Assembly: GCA_963705305.1 (NCBI GenBank)
Contig: OY970067.1
Location: 2,688,001-2,752,000, forward strand
DNA length: 64,000 nucleotides
From: an uncultured Methylomirabilota bacterium
Lineage (GTDB): Bacteria > Methylomirabilota > Methylomirabilia > Methylomirabilales > 2-02-FULL-66-22
Direction of reading: 5' to 3'
The notes under the pieces are model-generated. The model was not told the origin of the DNA. It ran no database searches and saw only the letters and a program-made list of their open reading frames with translations. The translations under genes were made by a program, and so were the position numbers. Positions 24,477 to 40,405 of the stretch are shown piece by piece. Each line of letters begins with the position of its first letter. The stretch's first letter is position 1.

Positions 24477-25619
24477 ATGCCGAACCCCAGCATCCTGATC
24501 GTCGATGATGAGGAAGGCCTCCAGAGTTCGCTGGCCACGGCGTTCGCCGCCGAGGGCTATCGAGCCGAGGGGGCCGGATCGGCCGGGCAGGCCCTGGCGT
24601 GCCTCCAGCGGGCGCCCTTCGACGTGCTGCTCACCGACCTCGTGATGCCGGGAGCGGACGGCCTGGTCCTGATGGAGCAGGTGCGGGCCCTCTACCCGGA
24701 CACGGTGATCATCCTCATGACCGGGGGGGCCACGGTGGAGTCGGCCGTGCGTGCCCTGAAAGGGGGGGCCTACGACTACGTCCTCAAGCCCTTCACCCTG
24801 GTCGAGATTTTCCACGTGGTGGGGCAGGGGCTGGAGCAGCGGCGGCTGCGGCAGGAAAATCTCCAGCTGAGCGAGATCAATCGCCGCCTGCAGGAGATCG
24901 ACGAAGTCAAATCCAATTTGCTCTCGGCCGTCACCCATGAGTTCTGGACGCCGCTGACCATCATGCACGGGTGGCTGGATCTGCTCTTGGGGAACCATTT
25001 CGGGATTCTCTCCAGCGAGCAGCGGGAGAGCCTGACCACCGTGCGGAAAAGCGCGATCCGGCTGGGACGCTTGATCTCCAACCTGCTGGCGCTGGTGGAG
25101 TCGGAGCGCGGCCAGGGCCTGCGCAGGCTGTCCTTGATCGACCTGGCGGAGGTCCTGCGGGAGATCGCCGGAGAACTGCAGCCCGATTTGGCCGAGCGGG
25201 GCGTGCCGATCACACTGGCCCTGGATTCGGCGCCTGCCTTGATCCAGGCGGATGGGGATCGGCTTCGGCTGCTCTTTTTCAACCTGGTCGAGAATGCGAT
25301 CAAGTTCAGCGAGGCGGGTGCGGAGGTCCAGGTGGGGATCACCCGGGAGGCGGAAACGCTGGAGGTCGCCATCACCAACACCCGCGGCGACATCCCCGTG
25401 GAACGGATTCCCAGGCTGCTGCAGCCCTTCACACAGGGGGACATGAGCCTGAGCCGAGCGGTGGGCGGGTTGGGCCTCGGCCTGGCGGTGGTGCGCGCCG
25501 TCACGGATGCCCACCATGGCCGGCTGGCCGTCGAGTCCGGCGAGGGGCGGGGCACCACGATTCGGGTGCGCCTCCCGACGGCGCCCCCGGATATCCCGCG
25601 CGGGAGGGACCTGCCGTGA
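24477..25619 (+). CDS. Hybrid response regulator-histidine kinase
   Basis: N-terminal REC, HisKA (THEFWTPL), HATPase (NLVENAIKF, GLGLGL). Confidence 0.9.
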   Translation: MPNPSILIVDDEEGLQSSLATAFAAEGYRAEGAGSAGQALACLQRAPFDVLLTDLVMPGADGLVLMEQVRALYPDTVIILMTGGATVESAVRALKGGAYDYVLKPFTLVEIFHVVGQGLEQRRLRQENLQLSEINRRLQEIDEVKSNLLSAVTHEFWTPLTIMHGWLDLLLGNHFGILSSEQRESLTTVRKSAIRLGRLISNLLALVESERGQGLRRLSLIDLAEVLREIAGELQPDLAERGVPITLALDSAPALIQADGDRLRLLFFNLVENAIKFSEAGAEVQVGITREAETLEVAITNTRGDIPVERIPRLLQPFTQGDMSLSRAVGGLGLGLAVVRAVTDAHHGRLAVESGEGRGTTIRVRLPTAPPDIPRGRDLP

Positions 25620-26521
25620 TCCCGGCCCCGCCGCGGCAGCGGGATGTGGTCCTGGTGGACGGCTCGGCCTCCCTGTACCGAGCGTTCTTCGCGCTGCCGC
25701 CGCTCAGCAATGCCTACGGGACGCCCACCAACGCCGTGCTGGGATTCACCACCATGCTGCTGAAGCTCCTCCGCGAGGAGGAGCCGGAAGCGGTGGGCGT
25801 GGCCTTCGACGGCCCGGGGCCCACGAGGAGACACCTCGACTTCCCGGCCTACAAGGCCCAGCGCCCCGACATGCCGGATCGCCTGGTCCAGCAGATTCCG
25901 TACGTGCGCCGACTGCTGGAGGCCATGCGCATTCCGGTGCTCATGATTCCCGGGGAGGAGGCGGACGACATCCTGGGAACCGTGGCCGTGCAGGCCGCCG
26001 CCGCCGGGCGCCGGGTGCTCCTGGTCACGGGGGACAAGGATCTCCTCCAGCTCGTGGGTGACCGGATCCTGGTCCGGGATACGGTGAAGCCCAACGTCTC
26101 GGGGCCAGCCGAGGTGGCGGAGCGCTACGGGGTGTCGCCGGAGCGCTTGCCGGACTACCTGGCCCTCACCGGGGACAGCAGCGACAACATCCCGGGGGTC
26201 CCCGGAATCGGCGAGCGCACCGCCCGGGAGCTGCTGCAGCACTACGGGACCCTGGAGGGGATCCTGGCCGAAGCCCCGGGGGTGCGCAAGCCGCGGCTTC
26301 GGGAGACGCTGCTGGGTCATGCGTCCCAGGCCCGCGCCAGCCTCCGGCTGACCACCATCCGGACGGATCTCCAGGTGCCCTGGTCCGTGGAGGATCTGTG
26401 CCGTCACGAGCCGGATCTGGGCGCTCTGCTGGCCCTGTTCCGCGAGCTGGGGTTCAGCCGGTTGGAGCAGCAGTTCGCGCAGCCGTCGCTCGGCGGCTCC
26501 CCGTCGAGGCTCCCGGACTGA
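25616..26521 (+). CDS. Stand-alone 5'-3' exonuclease/flap endonuclease (PolA N-terminal domain only)
   Basis: LVDG...YRAFFA, EADD, TGDKD, GDSSDNIPGVPGIG; stops after about 300 aa with no polymerase domain. Confidence 0.9.
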   Translation: MIPAPPRQRDVVLVDGSASLYRAFFALPPLSNAYGTPTNAVLGFTTMLLKLLREEEPEAVGVAFDGPGPTRRHLDFPAYKAQRPDMPDRLVQQIPYVRRLLEAMRIPVLMIPGEEADDILGTVAVQAAAAGRRVLLVTGDKDLLQLVGDRILVRDTVKPNVSGPAEVAERYGVSPERLPDYLALTGDSSDNIPGVPGIGERTARELLQHYGTLEGILAEAPGVRKPRLRETLLGHASQARASLRLTTIRTDLQVPWSVEDLCRHEPDLGALLALFRELGFSRLEQQFAQPSLGGSPSRLPD

Positions 26522-26548
26522 CCGGCTCCCGCGGGGTGAAAGGAGCGG

Positions 26549-27190
26549 ATGATCGTCGTCGGCCTGACGGGAGGAGTGGCAACCGGCAAATCCACCGTGG
26601 CTGCCATGTTCGAGGCGCGCGGGGCCGCCGTCGTGGACGCCGACCGGATCGCCCGGGGGCTGCAAGAGCCGGGTCAGCCGTGTTACCGGCAGATCGTCGA
26701 GACCTTCGGGCGGGAAGTCGTCGGCGCCGACGGGCGGCTGGACCGGCGGCGTCTGGCCCGCCTGGTCTTCGATGACGCGGAGTCGCGGCGCCGGCTGGAG
26801 GCCATCATGCATCCGGCCATCTGGGACGGGTGCCAGGCCGGGATCCGGGCGGCCGAGGCGGCGGGCCGGCCGCTCTGCGTGGTGGACGCCGCGCTGATCC
26901 TGGAGGCGGGCTGGCAGCATCGGTTCCAGGCGGTCATCGTGGTGACGGCGCCCGAGGCGATGCAGGTGGACCGGCAGGTGCGGATGCGGAGCCTGACCCA
27001 TGCGGAGGCCCATCGGCGGCTCCGGACGCAGTGGCCGACGGCAGCCAAGGCGGCCCTGGCCGATTTTGTCATCGACAACGGGGGGGATCTGGCCGCGACC
27101 GCCGCGCAGGTGGAGCGGATTTTCGTCGCTCTGACCCGGAATCCGGCGGGGCGGCAAAAAGCACTTGACAAGGATTGCGGGTCTTTCTAA
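26549..27190 (+). CDS. coaE: Dephospho-CoA kinase
   Basis: GLTGGVATGKSTV, VVDAD, MHPAI. Confidence 0.96.
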   Translation: MIVVGLTGGVATGKSTVAAMFEARGAAVVDADRIARGLQEPGQPCYRQIVETFGREVVGADGRLDRRRLARLVFDDAESRRRLEAIMHPAIWDGCQAGIRAAEAAGRPLCVVDAALILEAGWQHRFQAVIVVTAPEAMQVDRQVRMRSLTHAEAHRRLRTQWPTAAKAALADFVIDNGGDLAATAAQVERIFVALTRNPAGRQKALDKDCGSF

Positions 27191-27193
27191 GAT
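27165..27193 (+). promoter_or_regulatory. Sigma70 promoter of rho
   Basis: TTGACA-17 bp-TAAGAT overlapping the end of coaE. Confidence 0.7.
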
Positions 27194-27488
27194 CTGCGCA
27201 ACTTCGATCTGTCCTCGCATCACTCCACGTACGATTTTCCGCACCTCGAGGCTTCGAAGCCTAGATTTGCCCGCGGAGTGCCGCGGCCCAACAGGTGAGT
27301 TCACAATCGTCCGACTGCGATCGAGGTCATCGCCTTCCGGGGTAGCCCTATTCTCCCGCCTGCATCGCGGGGTGCCAGCCTGAGCGGATCAGCTTCCAAG
27401 GAGTTGGGCAATGTCGGTCAATGGCGCGGAGCGGACACAACGGTCAGTCCAGGAGCCTGAGCAATCCGACTCCACCAAAGGAGTGTCA

Positions 27489-28736
<1,248 letters not shown>

Positions 28737-28781
28737 CTGGCCTTCCTTCCCGGCCGGGCGGGGCCGATCGGAAGGGCCATG

Positions 28782-28810
28782 TTGTATTGACGGGCCGAAT
28801 GGAATATAAT
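28782..28810 (+). promoter_or_regulatory. Sigma70 promoter of rpmE
   Basis: TTGTAT-17 bp-TATAAT. Confidence 0.65.
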
Positions 28811-28863
28811 CCCCCTATTCGACTTGGTGGCCGAAAACCGATTCGTAGTGTGGAGGCGCGAGC

Positions 28864-29091
28864 ATGAAGCCCGGAATCCATCCTGAATACGTCCCCGCCG
28901 TGATCACGTGTGCGTGCGGCGAGGTGATCCATACCCGCTCGACCACGCCCGTCCTCAAGGTGGAGATCTGCTCCAAGTGCCACCCCTTATTCACCGGTCG
29001 GCAGAAGCTCATTGACAGCGAAGGCCGGGTGGAGCGGTTCCAGCGCAAGTACGGGCGCAAAACCGCCGCCGCGACTCCGTCGCAGACGTGA
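28864..29091 (+). CDS. rpmE: 50S ribosomal protein L31 (zinc-binding type)
   Basis: [29 protein letters not shown]. Confidence 0.97.
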
Positions 29092-29165
29092 GCCTGCTCC
29101 GCCGGCCGCACCCCTTAGGCACCTTCGGCAGAGGCTGCCCGCCCGGGGTTCGGCGCGGCGAAGAC

Positions 29166-29318
29166 CTAGCAGGATGCTGAGAAGCTCGTTTCGCCCAGGC
29201 TGCTCAAAAAGGTCCAGATGCAAGGCGGCCTCACCCATCCCTCGGGATGGGTACCCGGGGCGGGGCACCCATCCGAAGGATGGGTCTCTGCAGATGGCCT
29301 TTTTCAGTAGTCTGCTAG
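29166..29318. mobile_element. MITE-like non-autonomous element
   Basis: Terminal inverted repeats CTAGCAGGATGCTGAGAAG / CTTTTTCAGTAGTCTGCTAG; two internal ACCCATCC-N4/5-GGATGGGT hairpins. Confidence 0.7.
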
Positions 29319-29440
29319 AGAGGACATCTCCCATGCGGGTGAGGAGCGGTTCCACGGCTCGGCGCGCAGGGGGACGACCATCATCTCGCGCCGGACGGCT
29401 GCCGGCTTCCTCCGGCAGGGGGCCGGGTGCGGACCTGACC

Positions 29441-29500
29441 ATGTTCCCCTTCTTCGACCTCACCGTCCATCATCGAGCCGCCCACGGGCACCACCACTAG
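29441..29500 (+). CDS. Putative histidine leader peptide MFPFFDLTVHHRAAHGHHH
   Basis: 19 codons, 6 His in the last 10, upstream of an operon containing the his genes, followed by alternative hairpins. Confidence 0.7.
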   Translation: MFPFFDLTVHHRAAHGHHH

Positions 29501-29600
29501 CCGATCCCCGCCGGATCGGGTTTCCGTCTCTCCATTCATCAGCATTTCGGTCCGGACTGATCCGGTGTCCCCGTTCTCTCCCGGGGTGCTGTTTTGAGGG
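29501..29600 (+). promoter_or_regulatory. Putative attenuator with mutually exclusive hairpins
   Basis: 29501-07 pairs with 29513-19; 29509-19 pairs with 29557-67; 29564-73 pairs with 29582-90, followed by GTTTT and the prfA RBS. Confidence 0.6.
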
Positions 29601-29606
29601 CATACG

Positions 29607-30683
29607 ATGTCCACCTTGCTTGAGAAGCTCGCAGGCGTCGAGCAGCGATACGAAGAGGTTACAACCAGACTGTCCGAACCCGCCGTGCTGGCGGATCCGT
29701 CCGAGTACCAGCGCCTGGCCAAGACCCACGCCGAATTGAGCTCGGCGGTGGAGCAGTACCGGCGCCTCCTCAAGTTCCAGCGGGAGCTGGAGGAGGCCCG
29801 GATCCTGCTTCGCGAGGCCGCCGATCCGGAGATGCGCGAGCTGGCGGCCGCGGAGCTGGAATCCCTGCAGGCCAAGCAGGGCGAGCTGGAGGCCTCGCTG
29901 CAGCTCCTGCTCCTGCCGAAGGATCCGGCCGATGAACGGAACATCATCCTGGAGATCCGGGCGGGGGCCGGCGGCGAGGAAGCGGCGCTGTTCGCCGCCG
30001 AGCTGCTGCGGATGTACACGCGCTACGCCGAGGCCCAGCGCTGGAGGGTGGAGGTGGTCTCCACCAGCCTGACGGGAATCGGCGGGGTGAAGGAGGCCAT
30101 TCTCACCCTGGAGGGACGGGGCGCCTACAGCCGGCTCAAGTACGAAAGCGGCGTCCACCGGGTCCAGCGGGTTCCCAGCACGGAGGCCAGCGGGCGCATC
30201 CACACTTCCACCGTCACCGTGGCGGTCCTGCCCGAGGCGGAGGAGGTGGAGGTGGAGATCAACCCCAACGACCTGCGCATCGACGTCTTCCGCTCGACCG
30301 GCCCGGGGGGGCAGAGCGTGAACACCACCGACTCGGCCGTGCGCATCACCCACCTGCCGACGGGGCTGGTGGTGACCTGCCAGGACGAGAAGTCCCAGCA
30401 CAAGAACAAGGCCAAGGCGATGAAAGTCTTGCGGGCGCGGCTCTACGACATCGAAATGCGGCGCCAGAAAGAAGCCATCGACCGCGACCGGCGCAGCCAG
30501 GTGGGGAGCGGCGAGCGGGCCGAGAAGATCCGGACCTACAATTTCCCCCAGAACCGGGTGACGGACCACCGGATCGGCCTCACGCTGCACAGCCTAGTCA
30601 GCGTGCTGGAGGGGGATCTGGACGAGCTCATCCAAGCCCTCGCCACCTACGATCAGAGCGAGCGGCTGAAGGCGCTGGCATGA
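29607..30683 (+). CDS. prfA: Peptide chain release factor 1
   Basis: [11 protein letters not shown] (PxT), [24 protein letters not shown]. Confidence 0.98.
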
Positions 30684-31630
30684 CCCGCCTGCGCCTCCTC
30701 GAGCTTTCGGACCGTCTGTGCCGCCCGGCGCTCCCCGTGCCTGCGGCGGCGCTGCCGGACGTCGAAAGCGCCCTGGCCAAGGGGTCGCTGCTCCTGGAGC
30801 AGGCGGGGGTCGAGACCGCGCGGCTGGATGCCGAGTGTCTGCTGGCCGAGGTGTTGGCCTGCTCCCGCTGGCAACTGGTGCTGGAGCCGCGCCGGAGGCT
30901 CAGCCGGGAGGAGTTCGCCCGCTATCTGCGCCTCCTCCAGCGACGCGAGCAGCGCGAGCCCCTGGCCTACCTATTCGGCCGGCGCGAGTTCTGGTCGCTG
31001 AACTTCCTGGTGTGCCCGGGGGTGCTGGTCCCCCGTCCGGAGACCGAGACCCTGGTGGAGGCCGCCCTTGAGGCGTGCGCCGGGGCGGCCGGGGCGCGCC
31101 CGGTCATCATGGACCTCTGCACCGGCTCGGGTGCCGTGGCCGTGGCCCTGGCGCGGGAGCTGCCAGAGGCCAGCATCCTTGCCACGGACGTCTCGTGGCG
31201 GGCCCTCCGCATCGCGCGGGCCAACGCCAGAGCCCACGGCGTGGAGGGCCGCATCCTGTTTCTGCGGGGAGATCTCTGGCGGGCCCTGGGCGGCCATGAG
31301 CCGGCCGGAGGCGCCCATCTGATCGTAGCGAATCCCCCCTATGTTCCCTCGGAGGCGCTGGACGGCTTGATGCCCGAGGTGCGCTGGGAGCCGCGGCTGG
31401 CCCTGGATGGCGGCCCCGGCGGTCTGCGGGTCTTGCGGGAGATCGTCGCCGGGGCACCGGCGCACCTCCGGCCGGGAGGCGGCCTGCTGATGGAGATCGG
31501 CGCGGACCAGGGGGCGGCAGTGGTGGGGTGCCTAGAGGATGACGGCCGGTACGAGGCCTGCCGTGTCATCCGGGACCTGGCCGGACGCGACCGGGTGGTT
31601 GCGGCGCGGCGCCGGGCCGACGGAAATTGA
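30680..31630 (+). CDS. prmC: Release factor glutamine methyltransferase
   Basis: [25 protein letters not shown]. Confidence 0.96.
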
Positions 31631-31831
31631 AAATGAAATACCGACAACCGGCGACTGAACAACGGGGCAGCGGAGCGAGGGACCAGGGAAAGTGAAAATG
31701 GAAAACGGACGACCGACAACCGGACAACGGACCGGGGGACCGCGGTCATTGAAAAGGACGACGGGCAACCGGCAACTGGACAATGGGACGGATGACCGGT
31801 TATCTCTTGTCGGTTTTCAATTGTTCATTGC
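31624..31831. repeat. Heptad palindromic element, copy 6 (compound, degenerate)
   Basis: aaattgaaaatgaaataccgacaaccgg ... aaaatggaaaacggacgaccgacaaccgg ... gaccggttatctcttgtcggttttcaattgttcattg. Confidence 0.75.
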
Positions 31832-31850
31832 TCCTTGAGTGGGGCGTGCG

Positions 31851-33107
31851 ATGGACCGGCTGCTGATCCGAGGGGGACGACCACTGCGGGGCGAGGTGGA
31901 GGTGAGCGGGGCCAAGAATGCTGCCCTGCCGCTGATGGCCGCGGCGCTCCTCAGCGAGGAGCCGCTGGATCTCACCAACGTGCCCCGCCTGGTGGACGTG
32001 CGCACCACGCTGAAGCTGCTTCGGCATATGGGCGTCGAGGTGGCGGAGGAGGGAGGCACGTCCGTCAGGCTGCAGGCCCGGACGATCGCACGACCGGAGG
32101 CTCCCTACGACCTCGTGCGGACGATGCGCGCCTCGGTGGTCGTGCTGGGTCCCCTGCTGGCCCGCCTGGGGCGGGCCAGCGTCTCCCTGCCCGGCGGCTG
32201 CGCCATCGGACCGCGCCCCATCAACCTGCATCTCATGGGACTGGAGAAGCTGGGGGCCCGCATCCGCCTGAACGGGGGCTACGTGGAGGCGGAGGCGCGG
32301 GGCCTCACGGGTGCCCATATCATCTTCGATATCCAAACGGTCACCGGGACGGAGAACTTGATGATGGCCGCCGCCCTGGCCGAGGGCACGACCGTGCTGG
32401 AGAACGCCGCCTGCGAGCCCGAGGTGGAGGATCTGGCCAAGCTCCTGAACGGGATGGGAGCCAAGGTCGAAGGGGCCGGGACCACCACGATCACGATCCA
32501 CGGCGTTCCCCGCCTGTACGGGGCCGTGCACCGGATCATCCCCGATCGGATCGAAACCGGCACCTTCGCCCTGGCCGTCGCCATCTCGGGGGGTGACGTC
32601 ACGATCCGTGGATGCCGACCCGACCACCTGAAGGCGGTGATCGACAAGTTGCGGGAGGCGGGTGTACGGGTGGAAGTGGCGGAGGACACCCTCTCCGTCC
32701 GGGCCGCCGACCGACTGCGAGCCGTCAACGTTCGGACCCAGCCCTTCCCGGGGTTCGCCACCGATATGCAGGCCCAGATGATGGCCCTGATGACGGTGGC
32801 GGACGGGCGGAGCGTGATCACGGAGTCGGTCTTCGAGAACCGGTTCATGCACGTCAACGAGCTGTTGCGCCTCGGCGCGGACATCACCATCGCGGGCAAC
32901 ACGGCGGTGGTGCAGGGTGTCTCCGGCCTGGTAGCGGCCCCGGTGATGGCCACGGACCTGCGGGCCAGTGCCTCGCTGGTCCTGGCCGGCCTCGTGGCCA
33001 GGGGCACGACCGCGATCTCGCGGATCTACCATCTGGATCGGGGCTACGAGGCCATCGAGCGGAAGCTGTCGGCGCTGGGCGCCGATGTGGAGCGGGTGCG
33101 GGGATGA
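31851..33107 (+). CDS. murA: UDP-N-acetylglucosamine 1-carboxyvinyltransferase
   Basis: [34 protein letters not shown]. Confidence 0.98.
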
Positions 33108-33798
33108 CGGCGGGGGAGTCGTCGGACCGGGCGGGAAACACGGACGACCCGATCGCGGTGGCGGTGCCCAAGGGGCGGCTCTTCCCCAGCACCCTTCGCC
33201 TCTTTGCCGGATTGGGGATCGCGGCCCTGGAGGGGCTGGCGGACTCGCGGCGGCTGATCGCGGAGGACCCGGCCCGCGACCTGCGCTTCCTGGCGCTCAA
33301 GCCGGTGGACATCCCAACCTATGTAGAGCATGGGGCCGCCGACATGGGGATCGTGGGGAAGGATCTCTTGCTGGAGCAGGGACGGGACGTGTACGAACCC
33401 CTGGATCTCGGGTTTGGGGCCTGTCGGCTGATCGTGGCCGAGCCGGCGCATCTGCGCCTGCACGACGACCCCGCGGTCTGGACCTGTCTCCGGGTGGCCA
33501 CCAAGTACCCCCGGCTGGCCGAGCGGCACTTCAGCCAGAAGGGGGTGCAGGTGGAGATCGTCCACCTGTCCGGCTCTGTCGAGCTGGCCCCGGCCATGGG
33601 CTTGGCCGAGCGGATCGTGGATCTGGTGGATACGGGCCGCACGCTCAAGGAGAATGGCCTGGTCGAGGTGGAGGAGATCCTTCGGGCCAGCGCCCGCCTG
33701 ATCGTCAACCGCGCCAGCCTGAGGACCCGATATGCAGCCATCCAGCGGGTGATCGAAGCGCTGCGCAGCGCACGCGGCGCGTCCACAGGAGGCGGACG

Positions 33799-33811
<13 letters not shown>
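33104..33811 (+). CDS. hisG: ATP phosphoribosyltransferase, short form
   Basis: [46 protein letters not shown]; no C-terminal regulatory domain. Confidence 0.95.
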
Positions 33812-35091
<1,280 letters not shown>

Positions 35092-35095
<4 letters not shown>

Positions 35096-36204
35096 CCCTC
35101 GATCCCTGCTCGCTCATCCGCCCCGAGGTTCGAGCCCTCGCGGCCTACCAGGCGGCCGTGGAGCCCGATCCGAATCGGCGGGCGAAGCTGGACGCCAACG
35201 AGAGCCCGTTCGCGCTTGGCGAGTCGATCCGCGGTGCCGTCACCCAGGAGCTGGCCGCGGCTCTGCGCGACGTGGAGCTTCACCGCTATCCCGATCCGGA
35301 GGCGCGCGAGCTGCGCCGGCTGCTGGCGCGGGAGCTGGGGGTGGAGCCGGCCGAGCTCCTGGTCACCAACGGCTCGGACGAGGGGATCCAGCTCTTGCTG
35401 GTGGCGGTGGCCGGTCCGGGCGTGACGGTCCTATCCCCGGCGCCGACATTCGTGATGTACGAGCTGGGGGCGCGCGCACTGGGCCTGCGGTACGTCGGCG
35501 TGCCGACGGATGCCGAATTCCTCCTGGACGCCGACACGCTGTGCGCAGCCATCCGGCGGGAGCAGCCGCGGCTGGTTTTCCTGGCCTGGCCCAACAATCC
35601 CACGGGGCGGCTGCTCCCCGGGCCGGTGGTCGAGGCCGTGCTCCGGGCCTGCAGCGGGGAGGCGACGCCGGCCCTGGTGGTCGTGGACGAGGCGTACTTT
35701 CAGTACGCGGGCGTCAGCTTCCTCCCGCGCCTGCGCGAATATCCCCACCTGGTGGTCCTGCGGACCCTGTCCAAGATCGGCCTAGCGGGCATCCGATTGG
35801 GGATGCTCGTCGCCCAGGGGCCCCTGATCGCGGAGATCAACAAGGTCCGCAGCCCGTACAATGTCAATGCCCTCAGCCAGGCGGTCGGCCGGGTGGTGCT
35901 GGCGCATGCGGACCTGATCCGGCGGAACGCGGAGCGGATCGTCGCGGAGCGTGAGCGGATGCTGGCCGAGCTCCGTGCGCTGCCGGGCGTCACGGTCTTC
36001 CCCAGCCAGGCCAACTTCTTCCTCGTGCGGACGGATCGGCCCGGGGACGAGGTGCACCAGGCCCTGCTGGCGCGGGGCGTCCTGGTGCGCAACTTCTCGC
36101 ACGCCCCCCATCTGGCCAACTGCCTGCGGGTCACCGTGGGCGCGGCCGAGGAGAACGAGGCCTTCCTTTCCGCTCTGCGCGCCGTCCTCGGCGCGGGGAG
36201 GTGA
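35092..36204 (+). CDS. hisC: Histidinol-phosphate aminotransferase
   Basis: KLDANESP, NGSDE, PNNPTG, DEAY, LRTLSKIGLAGIRLG. Confidence 0.96.
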
Positions 36205-36205
36205 C

Positions 36206-36799
36206 ATGGCCCGATCCGCCGACGTAACACGCACGACCACCGAAACGGACATCCGGATCAGCCTGGAGCTGGACGGCCGCGGCGAGCACCGGATCGATAC
36301 GGGGATTCCCTTCCTGGACCACATGCTGGCCCAGGTGGCCCGCCACGCCCGATTTGACCTGGCGCTTCAGGCGCGCGGGGATCTGGCCGTGGACTACCAC
36401 CACACCGTGGAGGACATCGGCATCGCGCTGGGAGAGGCGGTGGCGAAGGCGCTGGGGGACAAGGCGGGAATTGTTCGGTACGGAGCGGCCCGCGTCCCCA
36501 TGGATGATTCGCTGGCGGCCGTGGTCGTGGACCTGAGCGGGCGGCCCTTCCTGGTCTTTCAGGCCCCCCAGCTCCGGGGGCGGGTGGGCGATTTCGACGT
36601 GGACCTGGCGCGGGAGTTCTTCCAGGGCCTGGCGAGCCACCTGCGAGCCACCATCCACGTGCAGGTGGAGTACGGGCAGAATCTCCACCACATGGTCGAA
36701 GCGGCCTTCAAGGCGCTGGGCCGCGCGCTGGATCAGGCGGTGCGTCCGGACCCCCGCCTGCAGGGGGCGGCTCCGTCCACCAAGGGAAGCCTGGCCTGA
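36206..36799 (+). CDS. hisB: Imidazoleglycerol-phosphate dehydratase
   Basis: FLDHML, HHTVED, HHMVEA, PSTKG. Confidence 0.97.
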   Translation: MARSADVTRTTTETDIRISLELDGRGEHRIDTGIPFLDHMLAQVARHARFDLALQARGDLAVDYHHTVEDIGIALGEAVAKALGDKAGIVRYGAARVPMDDSLAAVVVDLSGRPFLVFQAPQLRGRVGDFDVDLAREFFQGLASHLRATIHVQVEYGQNLHHMVEAAFKALGRALDQAVRPDPRLQGAAPSTKGSLA

Positions 36800-36800
36800 G

Positions 36801-37436
36801 ATGATCGCCATCATCGATTCCGGCATCGCCAACCTGCGGAGCGTGGAGAAGGGGTTCGCACGGGTGGGGGCCCAGGCGATCGTGGTCGAGGACCCGCGGA
36901 ACTTGGCGGAGGCGTCCGGCATCGTCCTTCCGGGCGTGGGGGCCTTTGCCGATGGGATCGCCAAGCTTCGGGCCCACGGCTTCGTCGAGGCGCTGTTGCG
37001 CGAGATCGAGCGGGGCAAGCCCGTGCTGGGAATCTGCCTGGGCCTCCATTTCCTGTTCTCGGAGAGCGAGGAGTTCGGCCTCCACACGGGGATGAATATC
37101 CTCCCCGGGCGAGTCCGGCGGTTCCCGGACAACGTCCCCGATCCGTCGGTCCTCGGCATGCGCCTGAAGGTGCCCCATATGGGATGGAACCGCGTTCACC
37201 TGGAGCGCCCGGTGCCGCTCTTCGCCGGCCTCCCCGAGGATCCGTACTTTTACTTCGTGCATTCCTACTACGTCGAGCCGGCGGACCCGGGCGTCGTCGC
37301 GGGGGTCACGGACTACGGGATCCGCTTCACGTCCGCCATCTGGCGCGAGAACCTCTTTGCGACGCAGTTTCACCCGGAGAAGAGCCAGGCGTTGGGCCTC
37401 AAGGTCCTGGCCAATTTTGCCGCCCTGGCGAGGTGA
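36801..37436 (+). CDS. hisH: Imidazole glycerol phosphate synthase, glutaminase subunit
   Basis: LPGVGAF, GICLG, PHMGWN, QFHPEKS. Confidence 0.97.
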   Translation: MIAIIDSGIANLRSVEKGFARVGAQAIVVEDPRNLAEASGIVLPGVGAFADGIAKLRAHGFVEALLREIERGKPVLGICLGLHFLFSESEEFGLHTGMNILPGRVRRFPDNVPDPSVLGMRLKVPHMGWNRVHLERPVPLFAGLPEDPYFYFVHSYYVEPADPGVVAGVTDYGIRFTSAIWRENLFATQFHPEKSQALGLKVLANFAALAR

Positions 37437-37515
37437 CGAGCGCGAGTGGGGTCGGCGGGGGCGCCGGTTCGGCGATCCGAGGGACCCCGTTCGAACAGAT
37501 TCGGAGAGCCGCCCC

Positions 37516-38247
37516 ATGGAGATCATTCCCGCCATCGACCTGCGCGGGGGACGCGTTGTCCGGCTGATCCAGGGGGATCCCGCGCGCGAGACCCGGTATG
37601 CGGCCGACGCGGGAGCCGTGGCGGAGGAGTGGGAGCGGATTGGCGCCCGGCGCTTGCACGTGGTGGATCTGGACGGGGCGCTGCTCGGGACCCCGGCCAA
37701 TCACGCCGCGCTGCAGGCGATCCTGCGGCGAATTCAGATCCCGGTCCAAGTGGGGGGCGGCCTGCGGACGCTGGAAGCGGTGAGCGCGGTCCTGGACCTG
37801 GGGGCGGCGGCGGCCGTCCTGGGCACCGCGGCCATCCGGGATCCCGACTTTCTCCGGCAGGCATGCGAGGTCTTTCCCCAGCGCGTGGCGCTCGGCCTGG
37901 ATGCGCGCAATGGCCTGCTGGCCGTTGCGGGATGGGCCGAGGCCTCCGGGGTGAGGGCGGTGGACCTGGCCCGCCGGCTCGGCGCGCTGCCCGTGTCGGC
38001 TATCATCTACACGGATATCGCCCGCGACGGCATGCTCGAGGGACCGGATCTGGATGGGCTGGGCAGCCTCACCGCCGCCACCCCCATCCCGGTGATCGCG
38101 TCGGGGGGGATCGGCTGCGTGGAACACATCCGGGCGCTGAAGCGCCTGGAGGCCGCAGGCGTCACGGCGGCCATCGTGGGCAAGGCGCTCTATGACGGAC
38201 GACTGACCCTGCAGGCGGCCCTGGCCGCCGGACGCGAGGCATGCTAG
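37516..38247 (+). CDS. hisA: ProFAR isomerase
   Basis: [29 protein letters not shown]. Confidence 0.97.
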
Positions 38248-39056
38248 CCAAGCGCATCATTCCCTGTCTGGACGTCAAGGAAGGCCGCGTCGTCAAGGGA
38301 ACCCAGTTCGTGAACCTCCGCGACGCCGGCGATCCGGTGGAGGTGGCGGCCCTCTACGACCGCCAGGGGGCCGACGAGCTGGTCTTCCTGGACATCACGG
38401 CCTCGTTCGAGCGGCGACGCATCATGATCGATGTGGTGGCGCGGACGGCGGATCAGGCCTTCATGCCCCTCACCGTCGGCGGGGGCATCCGGACCCTGGA
38501 GGACATCCGCGATCTGCTCAAGGCGGGCGCCGACAAGGTCTCGCTGAACACAGCGGCCGTGCAGCAGCCGGAGCTGATCCGCCGAGCCGCCGAGCGGTTC
38601 GGCAGCCAGTGCATCGTCCTGGCCATCGACGCGAAGTCCCGGGCGTCGATCCCGACGCCGAAAGCCGAGGCCGTCTCGTCTGAGCGCGCGGCTCGCCCCC
38701 TGCCAGCCGCCTGGGAGGTGTACATCCACGGGGGGCGCACGCCCACCGGCAAGGATGCGGTGGCGTGGGCGATCGAGGGCCAGCGTCTGGGCGCCGGCGA
38801 GATCCTCCTGACCAGCATGGACCGGGACGGCACCAAGGACGGGTATGACCTCATGCTGACACGCGCCATCGCCGAGGCGGTGGGGATCCCCGTCATCGCC
38901 TCGGGCGGGGCCGGGACATTGGAGCATCTCCGCCAGGGACTGGTGGAGGGGCGGGCCGATGCGGTGCTGGCGGCGTCCATGTTTCACTATCGCGAGGTGA
39001 CGATCCCGGAGGTGAAGTGCTACCTGGCGGAGCGGGGAGTGCCGGTCCGCCTGTAG
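38241..39056 (+). CDS. hisF: Imidazole glycerol phosphate synthase, cyclase subunit
   Basis: [40 protein letters not shown]. Confidence 0.97.
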
Positions 39057-39116
39057 TCTGCCAGCATTGTGCCGGGCTCTGGCGGCCTGGCGGGCCGCAG
39101 AGGACGGGAGGAGACC

Positions 39117-39599
39117 ATGGAATTCCAGGCGGTCAAGATCGAGACCCCGGACGGGGCGAACATCATCCTCGGCCAGAGCCACTTCATCAAGACGGTGGAG
39201 GACCTGTACGAGATCCTGGTCTCCGCCGTCCCCGGGGCGAAATTCGGAATTGCCTTCTGCGAGTCCTCGGGTCCGTGCCTGATTCGATCTGCGGGCACCG
39301 ACGACGAGCTCCGGCAGGCGGCGATCCGCAACGCCCAGGCTGTGGCGGCCGGCCACGTGTTCGTCGTGATCATGAAAGATGCCTATCCGATCAATGTCCT
39401 GAACGCGGTGAAGCTGTGCCAGGAGGTCTGCGGCATCTACTGCGCCTCGGCCAATCCCATCCAGGTGATCGTCGCGACCACCGACCAAGGACGCGGCGTC
39501 ATGGGGGTCGTGGATGGGCTGCCGCCACAAGGGGTGGAGACGGCGGCGGATGCGGCCGTGTGCAAGGACTTCCTGCGCAAGATCGGGTACAAGCTCTGA
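39117..39599 (+). CDS. Adenosine-specific kinase family protein (DUF355)
   Basis: NIILGQSHFIKTVEDLYE, FGIAFCESSG, AGHVF, RGVMGVVDG, LRKIGYK. Confidence 0.88.
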   Translation: MEFQAVKIETPDGANIILGQSHFIKTVEDLYEILVSAVPGAKFGIAFCESSGPCLIRSAGTDDELRQAAIRNAQAVAAGHVFVVIMKDAYPINVLNAVKLCQEVCGIYCASANPIQVIVATTDQGRGVMGVVDGLPPQGVETAADAAVCKDFLRKIGYKL

Positions 39600-39658
39600 C
39601 GGGCTGCGGACGATCGTGCCGCCGGGTGGGTTCCCCGCGCGGATGAAAGGGACCGACT

Positions 39659-40405
39659 GTGGAGATGCGCATCCCTGCCGACCTTCGCTTCGACGCCAGC
39701 GGCCTGATCCCGGCCATCGCCCAGGATGCGGAGGATGGCCAGGTGCTGATGCACGCCTACATGGACCGCGAGGCATTGTCGCGGACCCTGGAGACCGGCC
39801 TGGCCCACTATTACAGCCGATCCAGGCGCCGGCTGTGGCAGAAGGGGGAGGAGTCGGGCCACGTGCAGCGGGTCCGCGCGATCCTGTACGACTGCGACGC
39901 GGACACGCTGCTCCTCAAGGTGGAGCAGGTCGTCGCGGCCTGCCACACCGGGCACCGCTCCTGCTTCTATCGCCAGCTGTCCGCACCGGGCGGGACGCCG
40001 GCCGAGGCACCGGAGCGACGATTCGACCCGGCGGCGGTCTATGCGGGATTGGGCATACTCGCCGAGGTGTTCGGGGTCATCCAGGATCGGAAGCGTCGCC
40101 GGCCGGAAGGGTCGTACGTCGCATCATTGTTCGCCAAGGGCCCGGACCAGGTCCTGAAGAAGGTCGGCGAGGAGGCCGCCGAGGTCCTGCTGGCCTCCAA
40201 GAGCGAGGACCGGGGCCAGATCATCTACGAGATGGCCGATCTCTGGTTCCACAGCCTGGTCCTGCTGGCGCAGTACGGCATCCGGCCGGAGGAGATCGCG
40301 CAGGAGCTGGGCCGGCGAGTCGGCAAAGCCAAGTCAGAATACGGCCCGTCCCGAGCCGATGGCCCCGGGGCGGACGCGACGGGGGCCGATCGCCAAAGCA
40401 GTTGA
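39659..40405 (+). CDS. hisIE: Bifunctional phosphoribosyl-AMP cyclohydrolase / phosphoribosyl-ATP pyrophosphatase
   Basis: YSRSR, KGEESG, DCDAD, ACHTG..SCF, KKVGEE, EMADL. Confidence 0.96.

Follow-up and report, generated by a model that had tools for sequence, protein, structure and literature searches.

A histidine-rich leader open reading frame upstream of prfA probably tunes the release factor 1 gene and the his genes to histidine supply in Methylomirabilota

Control of the his genes by leader-peptide attenuation is a textbook case of bacterial regulation, known mainly from enteric bacteria. The enterobacterial leader, hisL, is a short translated open reading frame (ORF) of 16 codons with clustered His codons, and it lies directly before hisG. 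Here we analyse a 64,000-nucleotide stretch, referred to as the window, from the genome of an uncultured Methylomirabilota bacterium (contig OY970067.1 of assembly GCA_963705305.1, positions 2,688,001–2,752,000), in which a leader ORF rich in His codons lies between rpmE and prfA, the gene for release factor 1 (RF1), and in which prfA is followed by prmC, murA and a complete his cluster (Table 1). As in hisL (Rfam His_leader, RF00514), an ORF with a cluster of His codons stands upstream of his genes, and the presumed signal is the pausing of ribosomes when charged His-tRNA is short. Unlike hisL, the leader is placed before prfA, 3.5 kb upstream of hisG, with RF1, PrmC and MurA encoded first; it has about 36–56 codons rather than 16; its His codons form two clusters, of which the last abuts the stop codon; and it comes from a different phylum, with neither a conserved terminator/antiterminator nor a covariance-model match. 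The features of the leader-peptide class that are present are a short ORF with a Shine-Dalgarno-like site and a clustering of codons for histidine, the product of the downstream pathway. At a probability of roughly two in three, we favour the reading that the element is a lineage-specific, ribosome-mediated leader-peptide attenuator sensing charged tRNA-His.

Three further kinds of described system bear comparison with this locus. The leader ORFs TnaC, speFL, mgtL and toiL gate the termination factor Rho and sense a small molecule or an antibiotic through the nascent chain; TnaC does so by blocking release at its own stop codon. The Methylomirabilota leader resembles them in that a ribosome is proposed to be held at the end of the leader, beside an untranslated pyrimidine-rich spacer, and in that rho is present. 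It differs in that the cue would be the His codons, the C-over-G signature is weak and the role of Rho is a candidate one. The release factor 2 gene, prfB, is autoregulated by +1 frameshifting at an in-frame UGA, and here too a release-factor gene lies downstream of a stop codon that only that factor reads. In contrast to prfB, prfA forms one intact frame containing both release-factor domains, with no frameshift site and no internal stop; the UAG belongs to a separate leader ORF, and a role for the level of RF1 is speculative. Finally, his genes of Firmicutes and Actinobacteria can be preceded by T-box leaders (PMC9413887). The likeness to these is control of his genes at the RNA level by the status of tRNA-His, as proposed here, whereas the present locus has no T-box match and carries an ORF that is predicted to be translated in place of a specifier loop.

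The first-pass annotation of this DNA had drawn attention to a 19-codon ORF (ATG at 29441, TAG at 29498–29500, reading MFPFFDLTVHHRAAHGHHH) with six His among its last ten residues and a spacer of 106 nt between its stop and the prfA ATG at 29607, all of which is borne out by the sequence. This ORF is the tail of a longer open frame in which 29441 is an internal ATG. The leader probably has 55 codons rather than 19, because it is the ATG at 29333, and not that at 29441, which aligns with the start of the leader in relatives (GGACATCTCCCATG in the window, GGGCATCCCCCATG in relatives). The upstream start has GAGAGGA as its Shine-Dalgarno-like sequence, which removes the earlier concern that the ribosome-binding site of the leader was weak. 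By eye, the Shine-Dalgarno sequence and start codon lie inside a small self-complementary motif (GGGGGAT..TCCCCATG), both in the window (29319–29335) and in L003, L004, L015, L016 and L018; such a motif might restrict translation of the leader.

Taken alone, the signal in the window is no better than chance. In this genome of 66% G+C, 190 fourteen-codon segments in the six frames hold at least six His codons, and a scan of positions 28700–33400 returned two terminator-like sites, against 1.6 ± 1.5 in shuffled sequence, and no promoter-like site. What sets the leader ORF above chance is the recurrence of this ORF end at the homologous position in all relatives of the genus and sister family and the rarity of HHH directly before a stop codon, with only five instances in the whole genome. 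A profile of the core built from the genus found a single match in the genome of the window, at this locus (nhmmer, E 1.9e-11; next best 0.71).

The order contains 66 genomes, 21 of which, the window's own included, belong to the window's genus. The region between rpmE and prfA is assembled in 19 of the genus genomes and in the single genome of a sister family (L020), and a homologous leader ORF is present in every one of them (19/19 and 1/1). The first-pass annotation had staked its proposal on conservation of the short ORF among relatives, and with the leader found in 20 of 20 loci that part of it has held. The ORF ends in HHH-TAG in 18 of these loci and in HHL-TAG in the other two (L005 and L006). 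All 20 leaders have between four and eight His among their last 16 residues (six in the window), and 17 of them have His nowhere else. The common layout of the tail is H-x-H-H-H, then a five-residue spacer (P-A-A-D-G or similar), then H-H-H and the stop. An in-frame ATG with a Shine-Dalgarno-like site stands 36–56 codons before the stop in 17 of the 20 leaders, the exceptions being L004, L011 and L012; L004 keeps only an ATG that gives 18 codons. Outside the tail, sequence and length differ between subgroups, and leader length counted from the longest in-frame ATG ranges from 18 to 59 codons in relatives.

Within the tail, the pattern of variation differs between the His codons and the spacer that separates them. 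The first and second positions of the terminal three His codons are invariant except in the two Leu variants, while the third position is C or T, with entropies of 0.98, 0.49 and 0.63 for the three codons. In the five spacer codons it is positions 1 and 2 that vary and not position 3. The His codons therefore appear to be kept as codons and the spacer as RNA, and this conservation at the codon level points to a mechanism that senses histidine by translation. The distance from the leader stop to the prfA ATG is 66–132 nt, and 118–125 nt in 14 of the 20 loci, whereas the distance from rpmE varies widely through insertions; the leader element therefore belongs with prfA. Public records with the leader motif upstream of prfA are labelled Candidatus Methylomirabilota or Methylomirabilis.

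The relatives share a hairpin at the end of the ORF. Its 5' arm is made of the five spacer codons, its 10-nt loop reads CAY CAY CAY UA, and its 3' arm begins at the G of the UAG stop. In the 19 genus sequences, pairing holds in 77% of cells, compared with 25–52% when the partner is slid by 1–3 columns, and the inner helix is 86% paired; one of the pairs is A-U in ten sequences and G-C in seven. The hairpin is predicted in four of four subgroup alignments and is the sole structure on which the subgroups agree. When all 19 genus leaders were aligned together, RNAalifold found a consensus of two pairs at most, this alignment being too divergent. In the window the positional counterpart is a 7-bp hairpin directly after the stop, formed by the pairing of CCGATCC (29501–07) with GGATCGG (29513–19) that the first-pass annotation had recognised. 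A ribosome with the usual footprint, if halted on the final His codons or on the stop, would block the hairpin in both layouts. Neither His_leader (RF00514) nor a T-box was matched in Rfam at E ≤ 1 in positions 27000–37000 of the window or in L007, L016 and L004; the only Rfam match, CRISPR-DR20 inside rho (E 0.84), was dismissed as chance.

Downstream of the ORF-end hairpin lies a pyrimidine-rich tract, a candidate Rho loading site, which has 22–30 pyrimidines in 35 nt (63–86%) in each of 40 non-identical leaders, a set that includes metagenome copies. In many leaders a G+C hairpin follows, 15–30 nt before the prfA ribosome-binding site, with no consistent U-run. In the window the third hairpin of the first-pass annotation can be drawn (RNAfold 29563–91, -12.2 kcal/mol, then UUUU), and a terminator scan reports a shorter form of it at 29569–86 with five G-C pairs and the tail TGCTGTTTTG. 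This combination of hairpin and U-run is not conserved, since relatives mostly have no U-run after their last hairpin.

The leader has a narrow distribution. It is absent from 10 of 10 loci in three other families of the order, where the spacer measures 48–129 nt if rpmE is adjacent; one of these loci, L025, is from an unpublished genome (G028). In two further families the spacers measure about 70 and 120 nt by gene coordinates, which is not enough to hold the element, and no His-codon scan was made. Among 40 genomes from other orders of the phylum, no His-rich stretch was found in the spacer, all such stretches being out-of-frame readings inside rpmE. A distant control set consisted of the 80 loci from distant phyla that a prfA-based search for related loci returned; none has HHH beside a stop upstream of prfA, including eight with his genes downstream, six of which have the full prfA-prmC-murA-hisG order. 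On this distribution across families, orders and phyla, the leader was added recently, in one lineage, to a gene string that is itself old and widely shared. A first pattern scan of contigs for the leader motif gave mostly chance matches, among them one in Rokuibacteriota, where an unrelated protein proved to end upstream of a lysA-like gene. No Trp-rich leader was found upstream of trpE in the same genome (about 4662035–4662735, outside the window), and from the lack of a convincing one we conclude that leader-peptide control is not general in this genome. The trpE upstream region has only a 17-codon ORF ending in SHRW, with its single Trp, and a promoter-like TTGACC site.

These observations suggest the following mechanism. 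The leader of about 55 codons (29333–29500) would be translated, with its His codons falling within the last 16 and the final three abutting the stop. When His-tRNA is scarce, ribosomes would pause at the very end of the leader ORF, and the hairpin that spans or follows the ORF end could not form in their presence. The freed G-rich strand might then pair with the pyrimidine-rich spacer, with the presumed effect that less transcription would be lost before prfA. Expression of prfA and prmC would rise, and that of murA and the his genes as well if the transcript continues. On the comparative evidence histidine sensing is well supported, with Rho as the leading candidate for the output; the leader would probably tune both prfA and the his genes to histidine supply. 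Granted attenuation by this leader, we put Rho-dependent termination in the untranslated spacer of about 106–125 nt at somewhat short of an even chance, the remaining weight falling on a weak intrinsic terminator or another structure-based effect. It is the lack of a classical terminator that makes this locus a candidate for amino-acid sensing based on Rho. When the 5' arm is blocked, the predicted accessibility of the pyrimidine tract falls in 29 of 40 leaders and rises in none (0.66 to 0.57), which fits a freed G-rich 3' arm covering a Rho loading site.

A number of results weigh against the attenuator. The first-pass annotation had proposed the enteric scheme of 1:2, 2:3 and 3:4 hairpins, and the helices can indeed be drawn in the window, including an 11-bp alternative with two G-U pairs between CGCCGGATCGG (29509–19) and CTGATCCGGTG (29557–67). 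As a scheme it is not supported: the post-stop hairpins are not conserved, no conserved terminator/antiterminator pair was found among the leaders, and complementarity between the post-stop segment and downstream RNA is at the level of shuffled sequences (mean z -0.53; window -0.10), with z below -2 in 5 of 39 cases, all in two subgroups. Each leader was folded in three states, once free and twice with a ribosome-sized block, which covered either the terminal His codons and the stop or the upstream His cluster. This occlusion folding, which the first-pass annotation had suggested, produced no consistent shift in either the terminal hairpin or the prfA ribosome-binding site. The probability of the terminal hairpin averages 0.16 in the free state and 0.20 and 0.21 in the stalled states, with no consistent direction; in the window itself it rises on stalling from 0.10 to 0.36, the opposite of the classical model. 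On average the prfA ribosome-binding site is equally accessible in each state (0.366, 0.367 and 0.370), and masking of this site according to ribosome position was rejected. The change in accessibility of the pyrimidine tract is small and may follow from composition, and the sequences in which it was seen are kin. C-over-G skew is mild (mean 0.23, against a background of 0.126 ± 0.103), a value at least as high as the 0.18 of the window occurs in 33% of random segments, and the skew is striking only in L020 (0.48, top 0.1%).

Other adverse points are closer to the leader itself. The window keeps only 3 bp of the loop hairpin seen in its relatives, and positions 29430–29620 fold at -51.3 kcal/mol, compared with -57.1 ± 3.7 for dinucleotide shuffles (z +1.55), 189 of 200 shuffles folding equally well or better. 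The tail is HHL in two genomes, four leaders have only four His, and the conserved upstream ATG of L004 does not share the frame of the leader. Just 5' of the leader, the window carries a palindromic repeat that includes a T5 run. At the far end, a hairpin and T-run found in the genus between prmC and murA could stop transcription short of murA and the his genes. Of the histidine attenuator first proposed, the conserved His-rich leader before prfA, the complete his cluster on the same strand and the conservation of the codons are supported; the enteric hairpin scheme is not.

The high G+C content also raises the question of whether the ORF has any function at all. Long open frames are frequent at 66% G+C, dense His codons are common, as noted above, and the fold of the window is not unusually stable, all as expected of a chance ORF in spacer DNA. 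The ORF end is conserved in all 20 relatives and at 28 metagenome loci, and the His codons change only synonymously, which effectively refutes this idea and leaves it a negligible probability. Conservation would equally be expected if the ORF encoded a small protein with a His tail, for instance one that binds metal and is linked to L31, a zinc ribosomal protein; the ORF has a ribosome-binding site and adjoins rpmE, and C-terminal His-rich tails are common in metal-handling proteins. Pattern scans, moreover, turned up unrelated proteins ending in GGHHH. Yet conservation is confined to about the last 14 codons, the variation of the spacer codons at positions 1 and 2 fits an RNA stem and not a protein, and it is the distance to prfA and not to rpmE that is kept. 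The peptide has no Pfam or NCBIfam family, and an exact look-up of its 55 residues in a protein collection found nothing. We regard a small protein as improbable. The most conserved nucleotides do form a hairpin, as would suit an untranslated RNA element (a structured leader, a protein-binding hairpin or a T-box-like reader of tRNA-His) in whose loop the His codons are accidental; a CAY CAY CAY loop could conceivably pair with the anticodon of tRNA-His. Such an element is very unlikely given that the loop varies with a period of three, as codons do, that the frame is open from an ATG with a Shine-Dalgarno-like site in 17 of 20 leaders, that the window lacks the relatives' hairpin yet keeps the His codons, and that Rfam gave no relevant match for positions 27000–37000 of the window or for the three relatives searched.

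A further alternative to histidine as the cue comes from the stop codon. UAG is read only by RF1, and every one of the 20 genome loci has TAG as its leader stop. Of the 40 matches to a metagenome pattern that fixed the 5' arm and allowed TAA, TAG, TGA or TGG at the stop position, 28 adjoin rpmE and/or prfA and have TAG without exception, and the other 12 (seven TGA and five TGG) were discarded as unrelated genes. By comparison, TAG accounts for 31% of the stops of 2416 long ORFs in the window's genome, and the stops of 11 of 15 neighbouring genes vary among 11–12 genus genomes (rho, for example, has nine TAG and three TAA, and hisF six TAG, three TAA and two TGA). The leader might therefore be an RF1 feedback sensor, in which scarce RF1 makes ribosomes wait at the UAG and relieves attenuation of prfA and prmC, the His codons being incidental or a context for termination. 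The first genes under control would be prfA and prmC, and the hairpin and T-run after prmC could bound a prfA-prmC unit. But the G of the TAG also closes the stem of the conserved hairpin, as a C-G pair in 19 of 19 sequences, so RNA structure alone can explain its invariance; the sequences are kin rather than independent; and neither the two clusters of His codons nor the third-position variation specific to His is explained. A literature search of titles and abstracts met no His leader before prfA and no precedent for RF1 feedback through a UAG leader, and a targeted look-up in PMC10138114 brought up murA nowhere and prfA in no relevant context in the passages it covered. We consider RF1 sensing in place of histidine sensing very improbable. 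Somewhat less so, while still doubtful, is a dual sensor, in which ribosomes would pause at the same position when either His-tRNA or RF1 (or its methylation by PrmC) is short and either shortage would raise expression of the operon. If true, this would be the first natural case of RF1 feedback through its own stop codon, fused to an attenuator and probably acting via Rho.

Whether regulation at the leader would reach the his genes depends on the transcript continuing past prmC. The prfA/prmC and murA/hisG pairs overlap in ATGA on the same strand and in conserved order, as fits co-transcription. Between prmC and murA, the spacer in the window can fold into a long hairpin with a T-rich run behind it; its repeated motif, GAAAA..CGACAACCGG, is purine-rich on the + strand, and the fold of the spacer is not unusual (z -1.25). 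In most genus genomes the prmC-murA spacer measures 80–340 nt and holds a CGACAACCG-type motif as a long inverted repeat, with a T-rich run after it; the exceptions are two genomes with a half-site only and L233 with almost no spacer. In other families the two genes overlap or nearly abut, and the inverted repeat is not present. The 10-mer of the motif occurs 46 times in the genome against about 24 expected, and at only about twice the expected frequency it is not a general repeat. The palindrome could be a partial or internal terminator, an operator or a passenger, and it is the chief ground for treating control of the his genes by the leader as a possibility only.

The order of genes from rho to hisIE is identical in all of the 19 long loci that were compared, of which the genus contributes 13, and rpmE adjoins prfA in 29 of 30 loci of relatives. 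Within the his cluster the order is hisG, hisD, hisC, hisB, hisH, hisA, hisF, an adenosine-kinase-like gene and hisIE, and yqeY and then mutS2 follow on the + strand (Pfam). The gene between hisF and hisIE (39069–39599) resembles adenosine-specific kinase (PF04008, E 5.7e-75), and its position is kept in the genus and in one other family (L240). The spacer from rpmE to prfA is 515 nt in the window and about 300 nt in most relatives, the difference being due to the dispersed repeat inserted between rpmE and the start of the leader. The repeat has long inverted arms, each with a T5/A5 run at its end, and could end transcripts coming from rho and rpmE; the same spot is occupied by a related palindromic element in L015 and by a different palindrome in L004. 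Upstream of rho, on the - strand, an open frame of 842 codons (24776–27304) has no Pfam match, and may be either a real protein without a Pfam family or a chance frame in G+C-rich DNA.

Table 1. Coordinates of the leader, its candidate regulatory elements and the surrounding genes in the window.
Feature	Position	Strand	Basis and remarks
rho	27411–28736	+	Pfam
rpmE (ribosomal protein L31)	28864–29091	+	Pfam PF01197, E 7.4e-31; upstream of leader
Dispersed palindromic repeat (REP/MITE-like)	29190–29325		blastn against genome: 157 HSPs, 117 places
Shine-Dalgarno-like GAGAGGA of leader	29319–29325	+	Sequence; 8 nt upstream of ATG 29333
Leader ORF, 55 codons and TAG (MRVRSGST...DLTVHHRAAHGHHH)	29333–29500	+	Open frame; start homologous in relatives
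19-codon ORF of first-pass annotation	29441–29500	+	Internal ATG of leader frame
Regulatory His codons (candidate)	29468–29497	+	HH 29468–73, H 29483–85, HHH 29489–97
Leader UAG stop	29498–29500	+	TAG in genome and metagenome leader loci
7-bp hairpin CCGATCC/GGATCGG	29501–29519	+	Directly after stop; positional counterpart of relatives' hairpin
Pyrimidine-rich tract, candidate Rho loading site	29519–29553	+	25/35 nt pyrimidine
Terminator-like hairpin and UUUU, weak candidate intrinsic terminator	29563–29595	+	Scan and RNAfold
prfA (RF1)	29607–30683	+	Pfam PCRF and RF-1 domains
prmC	30680–31630	+	Pfam PrmC_N and MTS; start overlaps prfA stop (ATGA)
prmC-murA spacer, 208 nt	31631–31838	+	Three direct and one inverted copy of GAAAA..CGACAACCGG
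murA	31839–33107	+	Pfam EPSP_synthase, E 4e-116
Complete his cluster	33104–40405	+	Pfam hits; synteny in relatives
hisG	33104–33811	+	ATG overlaps murA stop (ATGA)

The new element here is a His leader in a new lineage, in an unusual place and without a classical terminator. Such a leader would have arisen independently in Methylomirabilota, at the only sizeable spacer of the rho-rpmE-prfA-prmC-murA-his string, and would be an example of regulation retrofitted onto an old gene order. The invariant UAG beside the His codons offers a testable idea of RF1 homeostasis. If the attenuator reading is true, the supply of histidine in these bacteria would also set the levels of RF1, of its methyltransferase and of the first enzyme of cell-wall synthesis.

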